A stretch of 64,000 nt of DNA from an uncultured delta proteobacterium (GTDB lineage Bacteria; Desulfobacterota; RBG-13-43-22): positions 64,001-128,000 of the forward strand of contig CAWDKY010000032.1 of assembly GCA_963802945.1 (NCBI GenBank), written 5' to 3'. The translations under genes and the position numbers were made by a program. Under the pieces are notes generated by a model. It had not been told where the DNA came from. It made no database searches and saw only the letters and a program-made list of their open reading frames with translations. This document shows positions 1,480 to 33,625 of this stretch, in pieces (the stretch's first letter is position 1; every line of letters starts with the position of its first letter).

Positions 1480-2517
1480 TCATGCTTTCAGCTTTTCAAC
1501 GACATCTCGAAGCTTTTTAAAAAGTTCTCCCTCACGTTCCGCGCAGGTAAGCATTAACTCGCTGGCCTTATCAAAATTGTCTCCGGACTGGCCTCGCTGT
1601 TTGATGATGCGCACAGCGATGACGGCAAAATGACGCCATAAATCTCCAATAGAAGTCATTTCCTGCGATAATCGGGCAAGATCATCAGAGCCGCTAAAAA
1701 GATCAGAGGCTTCCTGAAGAAAGGCCGCATACATAAAGCGAAATCCGGCGCCGCCTGTTCCTATTTCTTCCTGCATACGAATGAGATGAGCCAGTTGCCG
1801 GCAGGCTTCATTAAAACCAAACTTGTCCGGACTATCTTTAATCTTTTTAGCCAAATAACGTATGCCCCGTATGCCAAAAAGGGGCAAAGGAATTCTCAGC
1901 ATCATGTTGCAGGTATCCTTCATACCCTTGATACAGGCTGTGCGCAGATCAGGATTAGGCCGGACGGTTTTCAGATAATACATTAAACCACGCGGCTCCA
2001 GCGGCCCGCGCGCGAAACGCGCCCTTTCCAGATCTTCCGCCAGACAATCTACCGGGTGATCCAATATCGGGTCGCTCAAGCGGAAACCGTTTTCAATCTC
2101 ATGCAGAACAATCAAGTTGTGTCCGTTAAAATTAAAACGAAAACGTTTTGGAAAATAGGAAAGCCAGTAGATGTTGGTCTTCACTGCGACAACCTGTCCG
2201 GTTCGAAGTACGCGACGCAGTTCATCCATGCCTTTTTGGGGATTGCGAAAACGCTTAAAGACGAATTTTCCCCCCAGTCTTGTGGTAGCTTTGCGGAAGA
2301 TGGCTCCCGCCTGCGTCCTGTAAGTGCTGAGTGGCATCCCGACCCATTTAATAAACGGCAGATGGCCGAAAAAAATGCCGCTCCCAATGCCGAAAGCCAT
2401 GGGTTCGGAAATATCCACGCCCTCATGACGAAACAGAGCGGATGTAACGCCGGATTCGCAATGGGCAGAAAAACGATGGATAAAAGGTTTGCCGTTGATT
2501 ATGATTTCTGTCGTCAT
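1480..2517 (-). CDS. BtrH-like / C39-like cysteine peptidase domain protein (DUF4872-type C-terminus)
   Basis: AHCESG, GHNLIV, SDP and EEIGTGGAGFR motifs. Confidence 0.8.
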   Translation of the reverse strand: MTTEIIINGKPFIHRFSAHCESGVTSALFRHEGVDISEPMAFGIGSGIFFGHLPFIKWVGMPLSTYRTQAGAIFRKATTRLGGKFVFKRFRNPQKGMDELRRVLRTGQVVAVKTNIYWLSYFPKRFRFNFNGHNLIVLHEIENGFRLSDPILDHPVDCLAEDLERARFARGPLEPRGLMYYLKTVRPNPDLRTACIKGMKDTCNMMLRIPLPLFGIRGIRYLAKKIKDSPDKFGFNEACRQLAHLIRMQEEIGTGGAGFRFMYAAFLQEASDLFSGSDDLARLSQEMTSIGDLWRHFAVIAVRIIKQRGQSGDNFDKASELMLTCAEREGELFKKLRDVVEKLKA

Positions 2518-2536
2518 GAATAAATGAGTACCTTCC

Positions 2537-2944
2537 TTATACTTGATCAGGCACGGTTTTCAACTCTTCCAGAGTAATGGCCAACACTTTTGCGTATTGG
2601 ACTAAAACCGATAATTTAAGTTTTCTAAAAATATGCGGGCGGAAATGCCTCTTGACTCTGAATTTGGCTATGCCCGCTGTCTTAGCCAGAATCTTCGGGT
2701 TCATCTGACGCCGTTCCATATGGTAAACCAGCGGGCTTTTCATGCCCGCGAGTACGGCTTTTCTGGTTTCCTCCAAATTGGCCGCCAATTCATCTACAGC
2801 GAGGCCGTTAATTTCTTCTTCTGCCTTCCAGCCGATACTGGGCACAATGACATATTTCCCCTCATCATTGACAGCGTAACAGGCACGTTTTTGGTCTTCA
2901 TAATATTGAGGAACGTCATCCTGTGGAACTTCATTTGTTTTCAT
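2537..2944 (-). CDS. Conserved hypothetical protein with C-terminal HTH-like region, co-oriented with the BtrH-like gene
   Basis: 135-aa ORF, MKTNEVPQD..YAVN..GKY..GW motif; 19-bp gap to next gene. Confidence 0.7.
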   Translation of the reverse strand: MKTNEVPQDDVPQYYEDQKRACYAVNDEGKYVIVPSIGWKAEEEINGLAVDELAANLEETRKAVLAGMKSPLVYHMERRQMNPKILAKTAGIAKFRVKRHFRPHIFRKLKLSVLVQYAKVLAITLEELKTVPDQV

Positions 2945-3074
2945 GGTCGGTTTCTTTCAATAATAGTGACCTTTTCCGTCTAAACGTATTTTTTTATACT
3001 AAAATAGATACAACGCAAAGCAAAATTCTGTTACAATAATTACTCATTATTTTATTAATAATCTCAATTAATTT

Positions 3075-3335
3075 ATAAGAAGTTGCTTTTTGATGGGAAG
3101 AGTATAAGGAAAGAAGAAGACACGGTCAAGGATAAAAATAGGGCGGAAGGCAAGGGGACAAGGGGGGACTTTAAAGAAAATGGGACTATACAGGTCTGGA
3201 CTGTACAGATAAAAGTCGATAATAGGAAAAGGAAATCCGGCTCCCAATTTCTTACAGATTTTTCCCTTTAAATCCTGATCAGAGGCATCCATCCTTATTT
3301 TCCTTTTGACGAAAGCCCCGGGAGGCGTTAGTATA
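3075..3335. promoter_or_regulatory. Divergent promoter module (repeat A + repeat B)
   Basis: Minus TTGACC-17-TATACT (3101-3129); plus TTGACG-17-TAGTAT (3306-3334); ~110 bp similar to 18672-18786. Confidence 0.6.
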
Positions 3336-27912: not shown

Positions 27913-29166
27913 CTAGTCCTTCTCGGAGGTGGCTTTTTCATCACCGCTTTTTATTTCCACGGTATCCTTTCCCTTGATCACTCTTTTAAAACAATTGGAA
28001 CAAAAATTATAAGTTTGGCGTACTGCCGGTACCTGACCAAGACCAACGCGCATTTTTAAGGGAACATAGCCGGCCAGGGTGGACCAAGGTTTATCAGGGA
28101 ACAGGTACAAATTATAATAAGATCTTCTCTTCGCTTGCCAATTCTGGTTCCAGGCATAATCAGTCAGGAGATTGATTTCATCCACCTCGCCGGAATGAAA
28201 GGCCCTTTCAAACATCTTTTCCAACAGCACGGCGCCTGGAGAGTAAGAGGAATAGGCTTCATCATAGCAAATCTTTAAAATGATCAAAGACCGATTTATT
28301 TGAAAGGCCAGGTGAGCAGCAATCGTTTTCCCTTCAGCTTCCAGGAAGTGCCACTCCAACCAGCCCAGGTCCGTCAGCCGACCGGTCAAGGCTTTATAAA
28401 AAGACACCAAGGAATCGCCTTGACATAAAGCGCTGCCTTCGGTGTACTTCCAGCTGCAGGCCTCCACCGCCATGAAACGGGAAAGTTCTTGTTCGGTAAG
28501 GGAATCCCCTGTCAAAAAGGAAATTTTTGCCCCTGGAAGGGTAAACAATTTGCGTTCCAGGCGGCGTAAGTTTCGGACATATTTGGTTCCCAGGAGGGCC
28601 TTATATTCATCAAAAGATCGATCAACTTTAACAAAAGAGCCGTAACCGTCAAAAACAGACACCGCCTTAATTTTTCTTACTCCGTTATTCATGAGCTTTA
28701 TGGTGGGAGAACTTTCAGGGAGGCGTCTCATCTCAAAACTAAAACAGGTCGGTTGCATACGGGTCAGTTGAGACAGAAGTAAGGGGATGATCTCTTGTTC
28801 GCCGCCCGATTTAACCAAGAAATCAACCGAAGCAGTCTGGTCGTTATAGGGGGTCCGGAATTTATGGCAAGGCATTCCTATTCGTTTAATAGGAGTGATT
28901 ACTACCGGAAGCACACCCACCAGAGTTGAATGGTCATAAGCAAAAAGACAAAACCAACCCTCTCCGGGACTCAATTGATACTCCAGGTAAGAAGCGATCC
29001 AGGCGTGGGATGGATCCGGCAATCGATGCGGGGCCTGGAAGGCCAGGTCATTCCAGGCAGTTGCATGGGGTTTAAGCCCTTCAAGGGTTCTCACCGTTTG
29101 AATTTGAAAACCATTGTGATTCTTAAAAATAGGTTCTCCTGAGGAATCTCTTTTTGGGGTGATCAT
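27913..29166 (-). CDS. GNAT-family (CelD/BcsL-like) acetyltransferase
   Basis: SWK..GS, YDEAYSSYSPGAVL motifs. Confidence 0.8.
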   Translation of the reverse strand: MITPKRDSSGEPIFKNHNGFQIQTVRTLEGLKPHATAWNDLAFQAPHRLPDPSHAWIASYLEYQLSPGEGWFCLFAYDHSTLVGVLPVVITPIKRIGMPCHKFRTPYNDQTASVDFLVKSGGEQEIIPLLLSQLTRMQPTCFSFEMRRLPESSPTIKLMNNGVRKIKAVSVFDGYGSFVKVDRSFDEYKALLGTKYVRNLRRLERKLFTLPGAKISFLTGDSLTEQELSRFMAVEACSWKYTEGSALCQGDSLVSFYKALTGRLTDLGWLEWHFLEAEGKTIAAHLAFQINRSLIILKICYDEAYSSYSPGAVLLEKMFERAFHSGEVDEINLLTDYAWNQNWQAKRRSYYNLYLFPDKPWSTLAGYVPLKMRVGLGQVPAVRQTYNFCSNCFKRVIKGKDTVEIKSGDEKATSEKD

Positions 29167-29262: not shown

Positions 29263-30435
29263 CTACTTACTGAGGAGGCTTCGATATACTTCTACATTTT
29301 GTTTTGCAATCACATCCCAGCTAAATAATCTTGATGCCCTTTCATACAAGCGCCGGCCTATTTCTTCTCTCTGTTGTGAGTCACGGATAAGCCTAAGCAT
29401 TTTTTCTGCCAAGTCGGCCGGGTCATTCTCTTTTACAAATATCCCATCTCCACCGATATACTCCGGCAGGCCAACCGATCGAGAGGCAATAACCGGCACA
29501 GCGTTAGCCATGGCCGTAGTTACTGTCGATCCGGCTTCACTGGTTGTATAGGGGATGACCAAGAATAAACTCTTTTGGTATTCCACCCACAATTCTTGCT
29601 CATTCGTAAAGACATAGTCAAACCATTTAACCTGATCAGTCAAACCCGATTGGGCAATGGGCTCAATTCCCTCTTCCTGACCGTATTCACGATTCAACCC
29701 GTGGATAAGGACTTTTGGGCTAATCCCCTTTTCTTTTAAGATGACCAGGGCCTTTAAAAATAGATCGAAGCCCTTACCATGGGCCAAATGATGCCCGCCG
29801 CAAAAAATGATCTGATCTCGTGAATATGAAGTCAAATTCGGTAGGTGGGTCCCATGGGGGATGACATGAATCTTTTCAGCTTGAATACCCCAGGATTCCA
29901 ATTGTTTTTTCATGGGAAGCGTTTGAACAATAAGGGCATCAGCTTTATTATAGACCCGGTTTAATCGGACTGTAGTCAGCTTGAAATTCTTTAATTTAAA
30001 TTGCTTCTGGATGGAATCGATTTCATGAATGGTGACCACCCGCTTAGACTCGGTCGGGAAAGTCAAAAAAGAAAGCAAGGGTAGAAAGCCGAAAGAGCCC
30101 TGGGTCTGCTGATAATTTAATATAGGCAGCTTCAGGTGTTTCAGGTACCGAGCCCCCTTGAAGACATCCCCCCCATATTCAGGCAGGAGTCGGGCCAGCC
30201 GTTTAATCCTGGACCCCGGTTTGGGGTAAAAATCGGCAAAATGCATTTGGGGAACAAGGGAGAAGGACAAATCGGGGTTAAACGGATCGTGACCATAACA
30301 CCGGCAGTTGGCCGACAGGATATGGACTTTCAGACCTGTTCGTTCAAGGGCCGAAGACAGCCTGTTGGCAAAGTTGCCGCAACTTTTCTCCTTATACCAG
30401 CAAGCAATTATCCCAATTTCCTCCAAGTGATCCAT
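29263..30435 (-). CDS. Glycosyltransferase family 4
   Basis: VVTIHE, VIPHG, KGFD, AMANAVPVIAS, FSWDVIA. Confidence 0.88.
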   Translation of the reverse strand: MDHLEEIGIIACWYKEKSCGNFANRLSSALERTGLKVHILSANCRCYGHDPFNPDLSFSLVPQMHFADFYPKPGSRIKRLARLLPEYGGDVFKGARYLKHLKLPILNYQQTQGSFGFLPLLSFLTFPTESKRVVTIHEIDSIQKQFKLKNFKLTTVRLNRVYNKADALIVQTLPMKKQLESWGIQAEKIHVIPHGTHLPNLTSYSRDQIIFCGGHHLAHGKGFDLFLKALVILKEKGISPKVLIHGLNREYGQEEGIEPIAQSGLTDQVKWFDYVFTNEQELWVEYQKSLFLVIPYTTSEAGSTVTTAMANAVPVIASRSVGLPEYIGGDGIFVKENDPADLAEKMLRLIRDSQQREEIGRRLYERASRLFSWDVIAKQNVEVYRSLLSK

Positions 30436-31166
30436 TGAACCCCCTTCCTGATTAATGATTTAAGAAACCGCTTTCTTCCTTCGGTTAATTCCGGATTTAG
30501 GATGAGTTGAAGTATTTGATCAGCGACCTCCTCGGGTCTTGCCGGAGAAATATTTTTTAAAAAATCTCTTGGAAAAAGGCTTAACATCTCCGTATCGACA
30601 TATCCCGGGCAGAGGTAAGCAATTTTGATATTCGTAGCGGCCACCTCCTGTGACAAGGCTTCAGTCAAGCCAACCAGCCCGAATTTTGAGGCACAATAAA
30701 CGGCTAGATTAGGGAACCCTCCTTTCCCGGCCCCAGAGACCAAATTAATAATTTGCCCATAACCTTGCCTCAGCATGATCAACAATACTTCGCGCGAGCA
30801 AAGAAAAGCCCCTTTTAAATTGGTATCAATCATTTTATCCCAATCCGCGCTCGTTGTCGAGACCATTGGACCATAAACCAATACTCCTGCATTATTAATC
30901 AGAACATCTATCCGCCCATAGCGATCCACGACCTGAGCGATGAGGCTCTTCACTTCCTTCTCTTGTCGGACATCGGTAGGAATTGGAATACAAGAACCAC
31001 CCTTAGCCTTAATGAGGCCGCAAGCCTTTTCCAAGGCTTCCTTATTCCGTGCCGCCAGAATCACCTGTGCGCCTTTTTCAACCAAAATCAGAGAAGTTGC
31101 CAACCCGATTCCCTTGCTGGCGCCAGTCACAATAATCACTTTGTCTTGGACTAAACTTTTATTCAT
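30408..31166 (-). CDS. SDR oxidoreductase
   Basis: TGASKGIG, NNAG, YCASK. Confidence 0.92.
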   Translation of the reverse strand: MNKSLVQDKVIIVTGASKGIGLATSLILVEKGAQVILAARNKEALEKACGLIKAKGGSCIPIPTDVRQEKEVKSLIAQVVDRYGRIDVLINNAGVLVYGPMVSTTSADWDKMIDTNLKGAFLCSREVLLIMLRQGYGQIINLVSGAGKGGFPNLAVYCASKFGLVGLTEALSQEVAATNIKIAYLCPGYVDTEMLSLFPRDFLKNISPARPEEVADQILQLILNPELTEGRKRFLKSLIRKGVQWITWRKLG

Positions 31167-32169
31167 TGGCTAAGATGCTCATCATCCCAACAACTGCTCG
31201 AGCGGCCTTAACTAAAAACTTGGGGTTCAGCTTATCCAAGGTATCGTCCGCACTATGCATGTAGGGATTTCTGTAAAAGGAGGTAATGAACACCGCATTA
31301 TAGCCCTTCTCCCAGAAGGATAGTTCATCCCCTCAACCACACTGAGGGCCGATATTTTTTTTGATCCCAATGTCCCCCCCCTTCAAACGGGAATAAATGT
31401 TCTCAACAAACGAGGTATTGGCCGGACGCCCGCCGACCAGTAAAATTTCATTAGGATTTTTAAATCCTGTTTGGACAAAATAAATCGGCTTTTTAATCAT
31501 CTGTTTGGCCAAGTAAAGCCCTTCTCTCAAAAAGCCTGTGCCTTGAGTTTCCCGCCACAAGGCCTTCAAAGAAGGTTGCGTGTATCCGATCGTATCGATG
31601 TTGATGACTCCTTTAATGGAACGACCCTTGGCCGCCAGTTCTTGGGCATAGGCTTGGCTGCCTTTGTGGCCCTGTTCTTCATTGGAAAAAAAGACCCACT
31701 CCACCGTGTTATTACCGGGATTCCCGGCTAAGAATCGAGCCCCTTCCAATAAAACCGCCACCCCTGTGCCGTTGTCGTCGGCCCCGGGGGCCGACCTGTG
31801 GGATTCCCAGCCGGCCGGGTGCGAATCGTAATGGGCGCAGACCACATAAACCGTTTCAGGATCTTTTTTCCCTGAAATGCGGGCCACAACATTTTTCCAT
31901 ATTTTGCCTTCTGCGGTATAAAAGGGGTAGTTTACATCCAAGGTTTTGTACGGTTTGAGTTTATGGTAAAGATAGTCGGCCACTTGATTCTGTTTTTCCC
32001 AGGTCGTTCGATTTCTAAAGGATTGCAGTTCCTCTAAAGTCTTGAAGATCGATCGTTCCGAGATCTCCATGGGTTCTCTTCCCGGCTGGCGGAAAAGGCT
32101 GGAAGCAACAGCTGGGCTTTGTTGAAAAAATACCCAGAGAAAAACAAGAAGCCATAATTTAATTTTCAT
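31159..32169 (-). CDS. Secreted M28-family metallopeptidase, 336 aa with in-frame UGA at codon 279 (candidate selenocysteine)
   Basis: AHYDS, GADDNGTG, NEEQG, NIDTIG; frame continues past TGA (31333-31335) as GDELSFWEKGYNAVFITSFYRNPYMHSADDTLDKLN...ANE*. Confidence 0.8.
31305..31332 (-). promoter_or_regulatory. Candidate SECIS hairpin of the M28 gene
   Basis: UGA-GGGGAUGAACUAU-CCUUCU-GGG-AGAAGG. Confidence 0.5.
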
Positions 32170-32184
32170 TAAACCCGTCCTTTT

Positions 32185-33625
32185 TTAAAACCGATGGTCT
32201 TTCTTATCCTCTTTTTTATCCGGGTTAAGGCTCTTGACTTCTTTTTCAATTCGTTCTTTCTGCTGGGGATCTTTTTCAACATATTTCAAGGCGGTTTGGA
32301 AATGAAACAAGGCCTTCTTTCTATCTCCCTTCAAACCGAACGACTTTCCAAAATAATAATGGGCCTGTCCCAGATTGTTCAAATTTCCATAGACCATACC
32401 CAGATAATAATAAAGATCCTCTCCCTCCGAACCGAGCTTCAAGGCCCTTTGAAAATTTTCCAGGGCCAATAGATTTTCCCCTTTTTCCTGGTAGGCTCGG
32501 CCTAGAAAAAAAGCGGTGCTGGCATCTCTTGGATCAAGAATGGAGGCCTGACCCAATTTTTGAATGGCCTTTTCCAGGTCTCCCTTCATAAAAAAGGCTT
32601 GACCTAAATCTCTCACCAGGTAGATCTCTTGCGGTCTTAGCAATAATGCCTTCTCAAATTGATCGACGGCATCGTCAAATTTCCCTTCACGGATATCAAT
32701 CCAGCCTTGGCCGTAATGGACCCAAAATAAAGTTTGGGTGTCCTTGGCCCAGGACTGAAAAAGATTTCTGGCCCTTTGTAAGTCACCATAGTTGGTCAGG
32801 ATAATGGTTTGGACGCGTCGGAATTCATCGGAAGTCCCCCGCCAGGGACCCTGATTGGCATATTGTTGTATCAGGCTTTCAATATGGGACATGCGGTCCA
32901 CGGTCAGGGGATGGGTCATCATATAGGCCGGGATCCCTTCTGAACCAAATGACCCCCAGCGGCGAAGGTTGTCGAACAGATCGATCATGCCCTTGGGATT
33001 GAATCCCGTCTTGGACATATATTTGAATCCAAAATTGTCTGCCTCGCTTTCGTCCTCTCGACTGTATTGCAGGAACAAGGTCTGGGCCGTGGCCATAGAA
33101 CCGGCCATGGTGGCCATCAGCTATGTTGGGATCTCCGGCCAAAATGCCGAGCAAAACCGCAGCCATGGTGGCCAGGCCGATCTTTTTTTGTTTTTCCATC
33201 TGTCTGGAAATGTGGTGGTGGGTGACATGGGTGATCTCGTGGCCGAGTAAACCGGCCAGTTCAGCTTCCGAGTTCATGATTTGAATAATGCCGGTGGTAA
33301 CAAAGACATGTCCGCCCGGAACGGAAAAGGCATTCAATTGGGGATCCTTTAAGAGGTAAAAACGAAAAGGGTAGGGTTGTGGCCCGGCTTGTTTGAGAAT
33401 CTCTTGGCCCAGTCTATTGAGATATTCCAGGAGCAAAGGATCATGGATCACGGAGAATTCCTTCTCCACTTCTCGGACTGCATCTTCTCCTAACTTTTGT
33501 TCCTCTGCGGTGGTCAGGGCGCAAATATTTCCTCCAGTTCCTGGCAACCAGAAATTGATTTGAAAAAATAGGAAAAATCCTATTAGCCCACTGATGATCT
33601 TAATCAATTTGTTGCGCATGCTCAT
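32185..33625 (-). CDS. M48 metallopeptidase with TPR repeats, BepA-like (frameshift ~33120)
   Basis: NAFSVPGG, HEITH, YSREDESEAD, THP, TPRs. Confidence 0.87.

Follow-up and report, generated by a model that had tools for sequence, protein, structure and literature searches.

Does the UGA codon that interrupts the gene of a putative secreted M28 peptidase in an uncultured delta proteobacterium end translation, or does it encode selenocysteine (Sec)? The gene is part of a stretch of 64,000 nucleotides (the window: positions 64,001 to 128,000 of contig CAWDKY010000032.1, assembly GCA_963802945.1; Desulfobacterota, lineage RBG-13-43-22). On the minus strand of the window, an open reading frame (ORF; 32169..31333) starts with ATG at 32169, encodes 278 amino acids and has the C-terminal end ...G-P-Q-C-G, which is followed by TGA (31335..31333). 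Past this TGA the same frame stays open for 57 sense codons (GDELSFWEKGYNA...NPYMHSADDTLDKL...ANE) up to a TAA at 31161..31159, and there is neither a start codon nor a gap between the two parts. An earlier reading of the bare sequence (the original prediction) took this UGA as a candidate Sec codon. The elements on which it was built are indeed present: the stop after ...PQCG with 57 further open codons, an overlap of the extended ORF with the start of the next gene and a hairpin with a G-rich loop about 19 nt after the UGA, where we found a GGG loop at 19 nt. Judged by the comparison of homologous genes, the in-frame UGA is genuine, of ancient origin and maintained by selection, and its decoding as Sec is almost certain. 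We consider it very probable that the gene encodes an exported M28 hydrolase in which UGA279 specifies Sec via SelB and tRNA-Sec, with the hairpin probably serving as selenocysteine insertion sequence (SECIS) and with the lid motif C277-G-U279-G-D-E.

The first question is whether the codon is conserved. A search of 401 genomes of the phylum revealed the gene in five others, all from the same genus (five of the ten other members sampled). Each match has exactly one TGA and spans residues 1-336 (314 in one cut contig); with the window included, the site codon is TGA in 6/6 loci of the genus. The downstream peptide was then used as a pattern (D-[E/H]-x-S-F-W-E-K-G-Y, with the site codon left free) in species-representative genomes. 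It matched 12 loci, six with TGA after G-P-Q-C-G and six that are ordinary M28 genes with x-S-D-H. For metagenomes we used a probe (W-E-K-Q-x-x-V-A-[D/N]-Y-L) that cannot bias the site codon, because it lies 194-222 codons upstream of the site. It returned 31 loci: one chance match, seven that run off the contig before the site and 23 that reach it. All 23 have TGA followed by G-D-E-x-S-F-W. Past the TGA, the frame is open for 57-61 codons and then closed by a stop in 20 of them; in L138 it is open for 55 codons to the contig end, and in L131 and L139 the contig ends a few codons past the TGA. A pattern taken from a first alignment turned out to be generic for M28 and gave only relatives of 25-36% identity, which were reused as controls.

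Overall, TGA occupies the site in 26/26 distinct homologous DNA sequences with protein identities of 35-92%. In addition, positions 31333-31335 are covered by contigs (90-99% identical) from three other public runs, and no difference is listed there. The matching public runs are Logan contigs of relatives with shares of at most 0.17, and there is no RNA run among those listed; contigs 90-99% identical to the window occur in runs labelled soil and peat metagenomes. One of the checks proposed along with the original prediction, that of the aligned codon in homologs, has turned out in its favor.

The relatives form two subgroups that are only about 36% identical to each other. Subgroup 1 has the motif G-P-Q-C-G-U-G-D-E-[L/M/Q]-S-F-W-E-K-[G/D]-Y and N-termini that look like ordinary signal peptides; subgroup 2 has [E/K]-[D/E]-C-G-U-G-D-E-G-S-F-W-[D/A/E]-E-[G/D]-Y and N-termini with a lipobox-like L-x-G-C. 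G278, U279, G280, D281, E282, S284, F285 and W286 do not vary across the 23 relatives (35-92% identity). No other part of the protein is as conserved as this block, G278-U279-G280-D281-E282-x-S284-F285-W286, which straddles the UGA.

Is the frame behind the UGA translated? We compared the ratios of nonsynonymous to synonymous substitutions (dN/dS, Nei-Gojobori) in the 55 codons that follow the UGA with those in the 40 codons that precede it. Past the UGA, dN/dS is 0.167 in subgroup 1 (74 pairs) and 0.129 in subgroup 2 (58 pairs); ahead of it, the values are 0.175 and 0.195, respectively. Neither a stop nor a frameshift was found in the 55 codons past the UGA in 21/23 relatives, those with contigs that are long enough. 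Since the purifying selection past the UGA equals that upstream, we conclude that the downstream frame is translated.

The picture at the protein level is in line with this. Two database searches gave 262 relatives, of which 125 end at the site column and 118 extend across it; the remaining 19 could not be assigned to either group. Of the 125 that end there, 117 end in C-G. Public annotation follows the short form; P0023 and P0043, for example, were deposited as M20/M25/M40 hydrolases of 278-279 amino acids. Among the relatives with a sense codon at the site and the G-D-E signature, six have C-G-C-G-D-E and one has C-G-W-G-D-E; two are without the motif. The six Cys forms (P0123, P0124, P0127, P0129, P0166 and P0205) are full-length, so that the Cys homologs that the original prediction had asked for do exist at the UGA column. 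They are 29-39% identical to our protein over the whole length (BLASTP) and share the C-G-x-G-D-E-x-S-F-W block and an insert described below, but they are rare: 6 compared to 125 short (presumed Sec) forms among the 262 relatives. In every member with C-x-[U/C], the S-D-H of ordinary M28 enzymes is changed to G-D-E.

What kind of enzyme would result from reading through? The 336-residue product matches the Pfam profile Peptidase_M28 (PF04389) with E = 4.3e-32 and 111.9 bits (cut-off 21.3). None of the curated NCBIfam models covers the family; the best score was 68.4 bits against a cut-off of 600 (LapA NF045908 and others). An AlphaFold model based on the alignment of the 23 relatives has a predicted template modelling score (pTM) of 0.82, and its best matches among solved structures in Foldseek are M28 aminopeptidases, namely LapA of Aspergillus, the enzyme of Vibrio (Aeromonas) proteolyticus (1amp) and LapA/LapB of Legionella. 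Profile and fold thus agree with the earlier assignment to M28. Past the UGA, the model has a strand (292-297) and a helix (316-335), in blocks with a local confidence (pLDDT) of 76-94. At the N-terminus it has a helix (2-15), with residues 14-32 at pLDDT <50.

H113, D131/D132, E164/E165 and D192 are invariant in the 23 read-through relatives and in wider alignments. By the example of the 1amp enzyme, we take H113, D132, E164/E165, D192 and H305 to be the metal ligands and the catalytic Glu. In HMMER alignments to solved structures, H305 falls on His256 in the numbering of the 291-residue Vibrio aminopeptidase chain. The last metal ligand is indeed encoded beyond the UGA, as had been claimed from the sequence. 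The 278-residue product would be a broken enzyme, because it has neither H305 nor the core strand 292-297 nor the C-terminal helix. In seven loci of subgroup 2 (L141, L146, L149, L151, L154, L157 and L138), H305 is replaced by Glu. The metal site may differ among members of the family. The contexts of this Glu in subgroup 2 are N-P-Y-N-E-S, N-P-Y-H-E-S and N-P-K-R-E-T.

The same alignments place the UGA at a position that is well known in this fold. U279 falls on Cys227 of the Vibrio/Aeromonas aminopeptidase and on the Cys of the fungal LapA motif Y-G-C-S-D-H, whereas C277 falls on the first Cys of the Legionella motif C-G-Y-A-C-S-D-H (chain 5gne_A). The prediction that the UGA takes the second Cys position of the Vibrio-type motif is supported by this. 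In the Vibrio/Aeromonas aminopeptidase, the Cys223-Cys227 disulfide holds a loop rigid over the two-zinc site, according to the part of PMC4012986 that describes it. The read-through product has the same fold as 1amp (Foldseek E = 1e-15, TM score 0.77 when normalised to 1amp), and five metal-site residues align with those of 1amp and of Legionella LapA/LapB (6esl, 5gne), at an identity of about 19-20%. It differs from these enzymes in that C-G-Y-A-C-S-D-H there is C-G-U-G-D-E here, a ring two residues shorter, with Sec for Cys and G-D-E for S-D-H, and in that the family has an insert of about 37 residues after the fourth ligand. The best match among solved structures in both sequence and fold is leucine aminopeptidase A of Aspergillus oryzae (6zep/6zeq, 7oez), in which Y-G-C-S-D-H aligns column by column with C-G-U-G-D-E. 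This enzyme, in contrast, is fungal, has a propeptide and a plain Cys, and with Tyr two positions before the Cys it does not have a C-x-C/U pair.

Can the organism insert Sec? Its genome encodes a tRNA-Sec (74.3 bits, cut-off 47; called SeC with anticodon tca by ARAGORN), an intact selA (627 bits) and a selD (392 bits) with an in-frame TGA of its own at the usual place. Of eight distinct carrier genomes that were searched, six have a tRNA-Sec, and so do two genomes of this genus that do not carry the peptidase gene. A scan of the genome for a TGA with a hairpin yielded 451 candidates, most of them false; of these we followed SelD, two HdrA-like genes and a molybdopterin oxidoreductase. The two HdrA-like flavoprotein/ferredoxin genes (L162 and L163; contigs C15 and C30 of the genome, G000) have the motif D-C-[S/A]-M-U and near-identical hairpins of 7 bp with the loop AGGT, 22 nt past the UGA. 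The molybdopterin oxidoreductase (L164, contig C15, 494410-496308) has an in-frame TGA in C-V-L-U-G-N-R-C, the motif of an N-terminal Fe4S4 domain, and a 7-bp hairpin with a GGT loop 20 nt past the TGA. In this gene the TGA replaces the second Cys of the cluster motif and is not at the usual position of the Mo ligand. The SECIS elements of this genome have 7-bp stems and short, G-containing loops in common. Three further candidates with L-T-G-C-U were discarded as probably belonging to a repeat family and not to genes; they are a repeated element with the frame L-T-G-C-stop and a GC-rich hairpin with a GAA loop. A sister genome (G258) has, at 33090-34985 of contig C40, a further SelB-like gene (248 bits, 664-amino-acid frame) beside a second, weaker tRNA-Sec-like match (52 bits). 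The two may represent another Sec system or stem from contamination (the genome is 7% contaminated).

The hairpin downstream of the UGA deserves a closer look. A stem of 7-9 bp is found in 26/26 sequences, with a loop GGG, GGGC or UGGGAY 18-19 nt past the UGA. Bacterial SECIS elements have loops of 3-9 nt, a G within the first two loop positions and a spacing of 16-37 nt (PMC13188914). This geometry is found in all 26, and the free energy of the core is ≤−7.5 kcal/mol in 23/26. The pairing of the stem is kept despite changes in the peptide (E-K-G, E-K-D, D-E-G, A-E-G, E-E-D), and there are a few compensatory changes: C-G to U-A on both sides in L138, and G-C compared to A-U at the base of the stem between the subgroups. 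In a gapless alignment the two subgroups fall into different registers, and there is little variation within subgroup 1. The hairpin is probably a SECIS element.

Several observations weigh against our proposal or against parts of it, and they concern the hairpin, the machinery and the chemistry at the site. The core hairpin of the window (7 bp, −6.4 kcal/mol; −8.2 kcal/mol for a 48-nt fold) is the weakest of subgroup 1. A 69-nt fold does not differ significantly from shuffled sequences (z = −1.24; 16 of 200 shuffles fold as well), and with synonymous codons shuffled (500 times for each of 25 sequences), 12-39% reach at least the native stem length. Ordinary M28 genes without Sec have a stem of at least 7 bp at the equivalent place in 15/67 cases, several of them at the very same spot. 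This is due to the peptide S-F-W-[D/E]-[K/E/Q]-G with its inherent coding sequence UCC-UUY...RAR-GGN, in which the Trp codon contributes the loop Gs. A scan of positions 31100-31500 with Rfam (E up to 10) gave no SECIS family but only chance matches of the snoRNA/miRNA type. Since the peptide S-F-W-x-x-G dictates most of the stem, we do not count the hairpin as strong evidence. What had been predicted as a SECIS holds with regard to geometry, but its value as evidence is smaller than it had seemed, because the conserved peptide S-F-W-E-K-G itself encodes the inverted repeat. The hairpin seems to have been present in the M28 motif already and to have been recruited from there.

As to the machinery, the domains of SelB are present, but the gene is split into ORFs of 254, 160 and 260 amino acids as assembled. 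Compared to the intact gene of a sister genome (646 amino acids, 93% identical DNA), it is split by three single-base insertions; in a third member of the genus, selB is intact as well (682 amino acids). If the insertions are real, the organism could not insert Sec. More likely they are errors of the assembly consensus, because all Sec-dependent frames that were looked at are intact. A single extra base, at about 33115, also shifts the frame of the adjacent M48-TPR peptidase gene; this base is absent from the sister genome (L103, a single ORF of at least 494 amino acids) and from a related metagenome contig (run X4). The demand of the original prediction for a set of sel genes was therefore answered in part: tRNA-Sec (selC), selA and selD are there and intact, whereas the selB of this assembly is split, with unbroken counterparts in two sister genomes. 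Furthermore, tRNA-Sec was not found in two of the carriers (G199 and G402; both fragmented, with only 150 of the candidates scored in each).

At the site itself, the full-length relative P0125 has Trp (its codon could be TGG, or TGA under another code). The possible Se-S bond is doubtful in its details: residues 279-281 have pLDDT <50 in the AlphaFold model and are unreliable, L148 has Asp in place of the partner Cys277, and the spacing is C-x-U and not C-x-x-x-C. In place of the C-x-x-x-C before S-D-H that marks the Vibrio-type lid disulfide, we find C-x-U followed by G-D-E, of which the second position matches.

What else could explain the UGA? A sequencing error or a recent nonsense mutation that left a pseudogene might be suspected in an assembly that has at least four suspicious single-base insertions elsewhere, but TGA in 26/26 distinct sequences from independent assemblies and the three further runs that cross the site refute this; we give it practically no weight. 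Gene callers and the NCBI annotation (P0023, P0043) take the UGA for a genuine stop, as TGA normally is in this genome, with the 278-residue protein as sole product and the downstream frame untranslated or a relic. This is hardly credible in view of dN/dS values of 0.13-0.17 in the 55 downstream codons, equal to those upstream, the intact frame in 21/23 relatives, a short form without metal ligand, core strand and terminal helix, and a most conserved block that straddles the UGA.

Read-through might also proceed without Sec, by near-cognate decoding as Trp, Cys or Gly or by a recoding of TGA in the whole lineage. The Trp of P0125 would be compatible with this, and so would a hairpin that is statistically indistinguishable from a by-product of the peptide. 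On the other hand, TGA is an ordinary stop in the window, where it ends 19/47 ORFs of at least 180 amino acids; the relatives with a sense codon have Cys in six cases and Trp in one; a Cys precedes the site by two residues, and the site coincides with a Cys that forms a known disulfide in this fold; and tRNA-Sec is present in most of the carrier genomes searched. We regard this explanation as very improbable. Finally, the Sec family could be real but the system decaying in this organism, so that with a broken selB this copy yields only the short protein. The three 1-nt insertions in selB of G000 (ORFs of 254, 160 and 260 amino acids) and the one at about 33115 in the neighboring M48 gene fit this view. 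Yet selA, tRNA-Sec, the Sec-containing selD, two HdrA-like genes and the peptidase gene are intact, with frames that stay open to either side of the UGA in the genes that have one, which would be unexpected long after the loss of SelB, and scattered single-base insertions in two unrelated genes resemble errors of the assembly consensus. A decaying system is improbable, though less so than the other alternatives. Altogether, the conserved UGA, the selected downstream frame and the Cys homologs support the original prediction that the UGA is a Sec codon.

Table 1 Positions of the peptidase gene, its parts and other loci mentioned in the text (window numbering unless another contig or locus is named)
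Feature	Position	Strand	Remarks
Complete read-through gene	31159..32169	−	336 codons including one in-frame TGA, plus TAA stop; M28-family metallopeptidase
In-frame TGA, residue 279, proposed selenocysteine	31333..31335	−	TGA in 26/26 distinct homologous DNA sequences
Cys277 codon (TGT), partner in the C-G-U motif	31339..31341	−	Cys in 22/23 full-length read-through relatives
57-codon extension	31162..31332	−	Invariant G-D-E-x-S-F-W block, beta strand, last metal ligand, C-terminal helix
Candidate SECIS hairpin, UCCUUCU-GGG-AGAAGGG	31304..31320	−	Starts 12 nt after the UGA, loop after 19 nt
His305 codon, last metal ligand (N-P-Y-M-H-S-A-D-D)	31255..31257	−	Aligns with His256 of the Vibrio aminopeptidase chain
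Other metal-site codons	31594..31833	−	H113 31831-31833; D131/D132 31774-31779; E164/E165 31675-31680; D192 31594-31596
Probable signal peptide, residues 1-23 (...AVAS)	32101..32169	−	N-terminus MKIKLWLLVFLWVFFQQSPAVAS, judged by eye
Stop/start overlap ATGAATAA	31159..31166	−	TAA of the extended ORF overlaps the ATG of the SDR gene (31166..30408)
Acetyltransf_6 genes	window 27913-29166; L133 8001-9272; L153 8732-9940; L132 5236-6348		
Split selB (L009)	G000 contig C30, 178705-182334		Comparison with sister genome
L-T-G-C-stop repeat copies	G000 C28 83516-83872; C16 62637-63005; C30 128994-129320		

The peptidase gene is preceded by genes for a phosphoglycerate mutase and an M48-TPR peptidase, the latter 15 nt away, and followed by genes for a short-chain dehydrogenase (SDR), a GT4 glycosyltransferase and an Acetyltransf_6 protein (GNAT). 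The M48 peptidase plus TPR gene (window 32185-33625, minus strand) appears as two overlapping frames, 33625..32879 and 33117..32185. The overlap with the next gene is also seen in the sister genome L103, where the peptidase ORF (1501..2508) is overlapped by its neighbor (2504..3262). In three loci of subgroup 2 (L133, L153 and L132), the gene directly after the peptidase gene encodes an Acetyltransf_6 protein. Acetyltransf_6 proteins (GNAT, 370-423 amino acids) are recurrent neighbors in both subgroups, and genes for a carbamoyltransferase, SDR and GT4 glycosyltransferase recur as well. This neighborhood suggests a role in the chemistry of the cell envelope or of modified polysaccharides rather than in bulk protein digestion.

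How would the protein be made, and what would selenium do in it? According to our proposal, the gene would give rise to one exported, two-metal hydrolase of 336 residues and of the aminopeptidase type of M28. The UGA at codon 279 would be decoded as Sec by SelB and tRNA-Sec, with the help of the hairpin 12 nt downstream, which arises from the codons for S-F-W-E-K-G and probably acts as SECIS. The decoding mechanism itself is the ordinary bacterial one; the actual insertion of selenium and the action of the enzyme as a peptidase outside the cytoplasm are what we infer from the gene. U279 would be part of an active-site lid loop, C277-G-U279-G-D-E, at the place of Cys227 in the Cys223-Cys227 disulfide. 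Because U279 occupies this position of the lid disulfide, it may be linked with C277 in a selenenylsulfide, or the two may act as a reversible selenol/thiol pair, which would fix or gate the lid.

By general chemistry, a Se-S link should withstand reduction better than an S-S link. A link that resists reduction would suit an exported enzyme of anaerobes living in peat, soil and sediment. A simple staple is called into doubt by the shorter C-x-U ring, the change of S-D-H to G-D-E, the absence of the Cys from L148 and the Glu for His305 in several members of subgroup 2; Sec may instead act directly at the metal site. The metal site may have been remodelled when Sec arrived, as is hinted by three observations: G-D-E replaces S-D-H along with C-x-U, His is changed to Glu in some members, and Sec and Cys forms stand at 125 to 6. 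It is tempting to speculate, although we consider it rather unlikely, that the site is a redox- or metal-gated Sec switch: the reduced selenolate of U279 (together with C277, D281 and E282) would bind or block the metal, and oxidation to the Se-S form would release it.

Has such a selenoprotein been described before? The 'complete list' of 87 prokaryotic selenoprotein families (PMC9312934, Table 1) has no M28/M20 entry; a trypsin-like serine protease is the only protease in it. The text of a 2026 catalogue of 119 families (PMC13188914) is free of wording such as peptidase, protease, hydrolase or M28/PF04389/PF01546, and families from recent surveys are folded into the table of this review. The main texts of two of these surveys, deep-Sep and BSepDB, have no such peptidase wording either. 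In a full-text search of the literature, no paper pairs selenoprotein with Peptidase_M28, and among the matches listed, M28 together with selenocysteine came up only in a review that deals with non-canonical amino acids in the study of proteases (PMC10531186). The motif C-x-U is also carried by predicted selenoproteins in the list of 87 families (UshA-like, rhodanese form 2/3, thioredoxin-like Sec.1), but none of these is of the M28/M20 type. We are dealing with a real and sizeable selenoprotein family that is apparently undescribed, as far as the catalogues checked go, in agreement with the original prediction, which named no established family of this kind.

The finding reveals a fault of annotation: databases carry well over a hundred versions of the protein that are cut at residue 278 and are without a metal ligand. 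It may also say something about the origin of SECIS elements, since the ancestral M28 peptide S-F-W-x-x-G already encodes a hairpin, and at the right distance from the codon of the disulfide Cys. Among the selenoproteins characterised so far, the thioredoxin-like fold with its redox motif prevails (PMC13188914). It would be unusual for selenium to be used in a widespread exported two-metal hydrolase with about 20 Sec forms for each Cys form, where it would take the place of a structural or regulatory disulfide beside the zinc site. If the switch described above is true, selenocysteine would adjust a hydrolase outside the cytoplasm to the redox conditions in anoxic sediments and peat.

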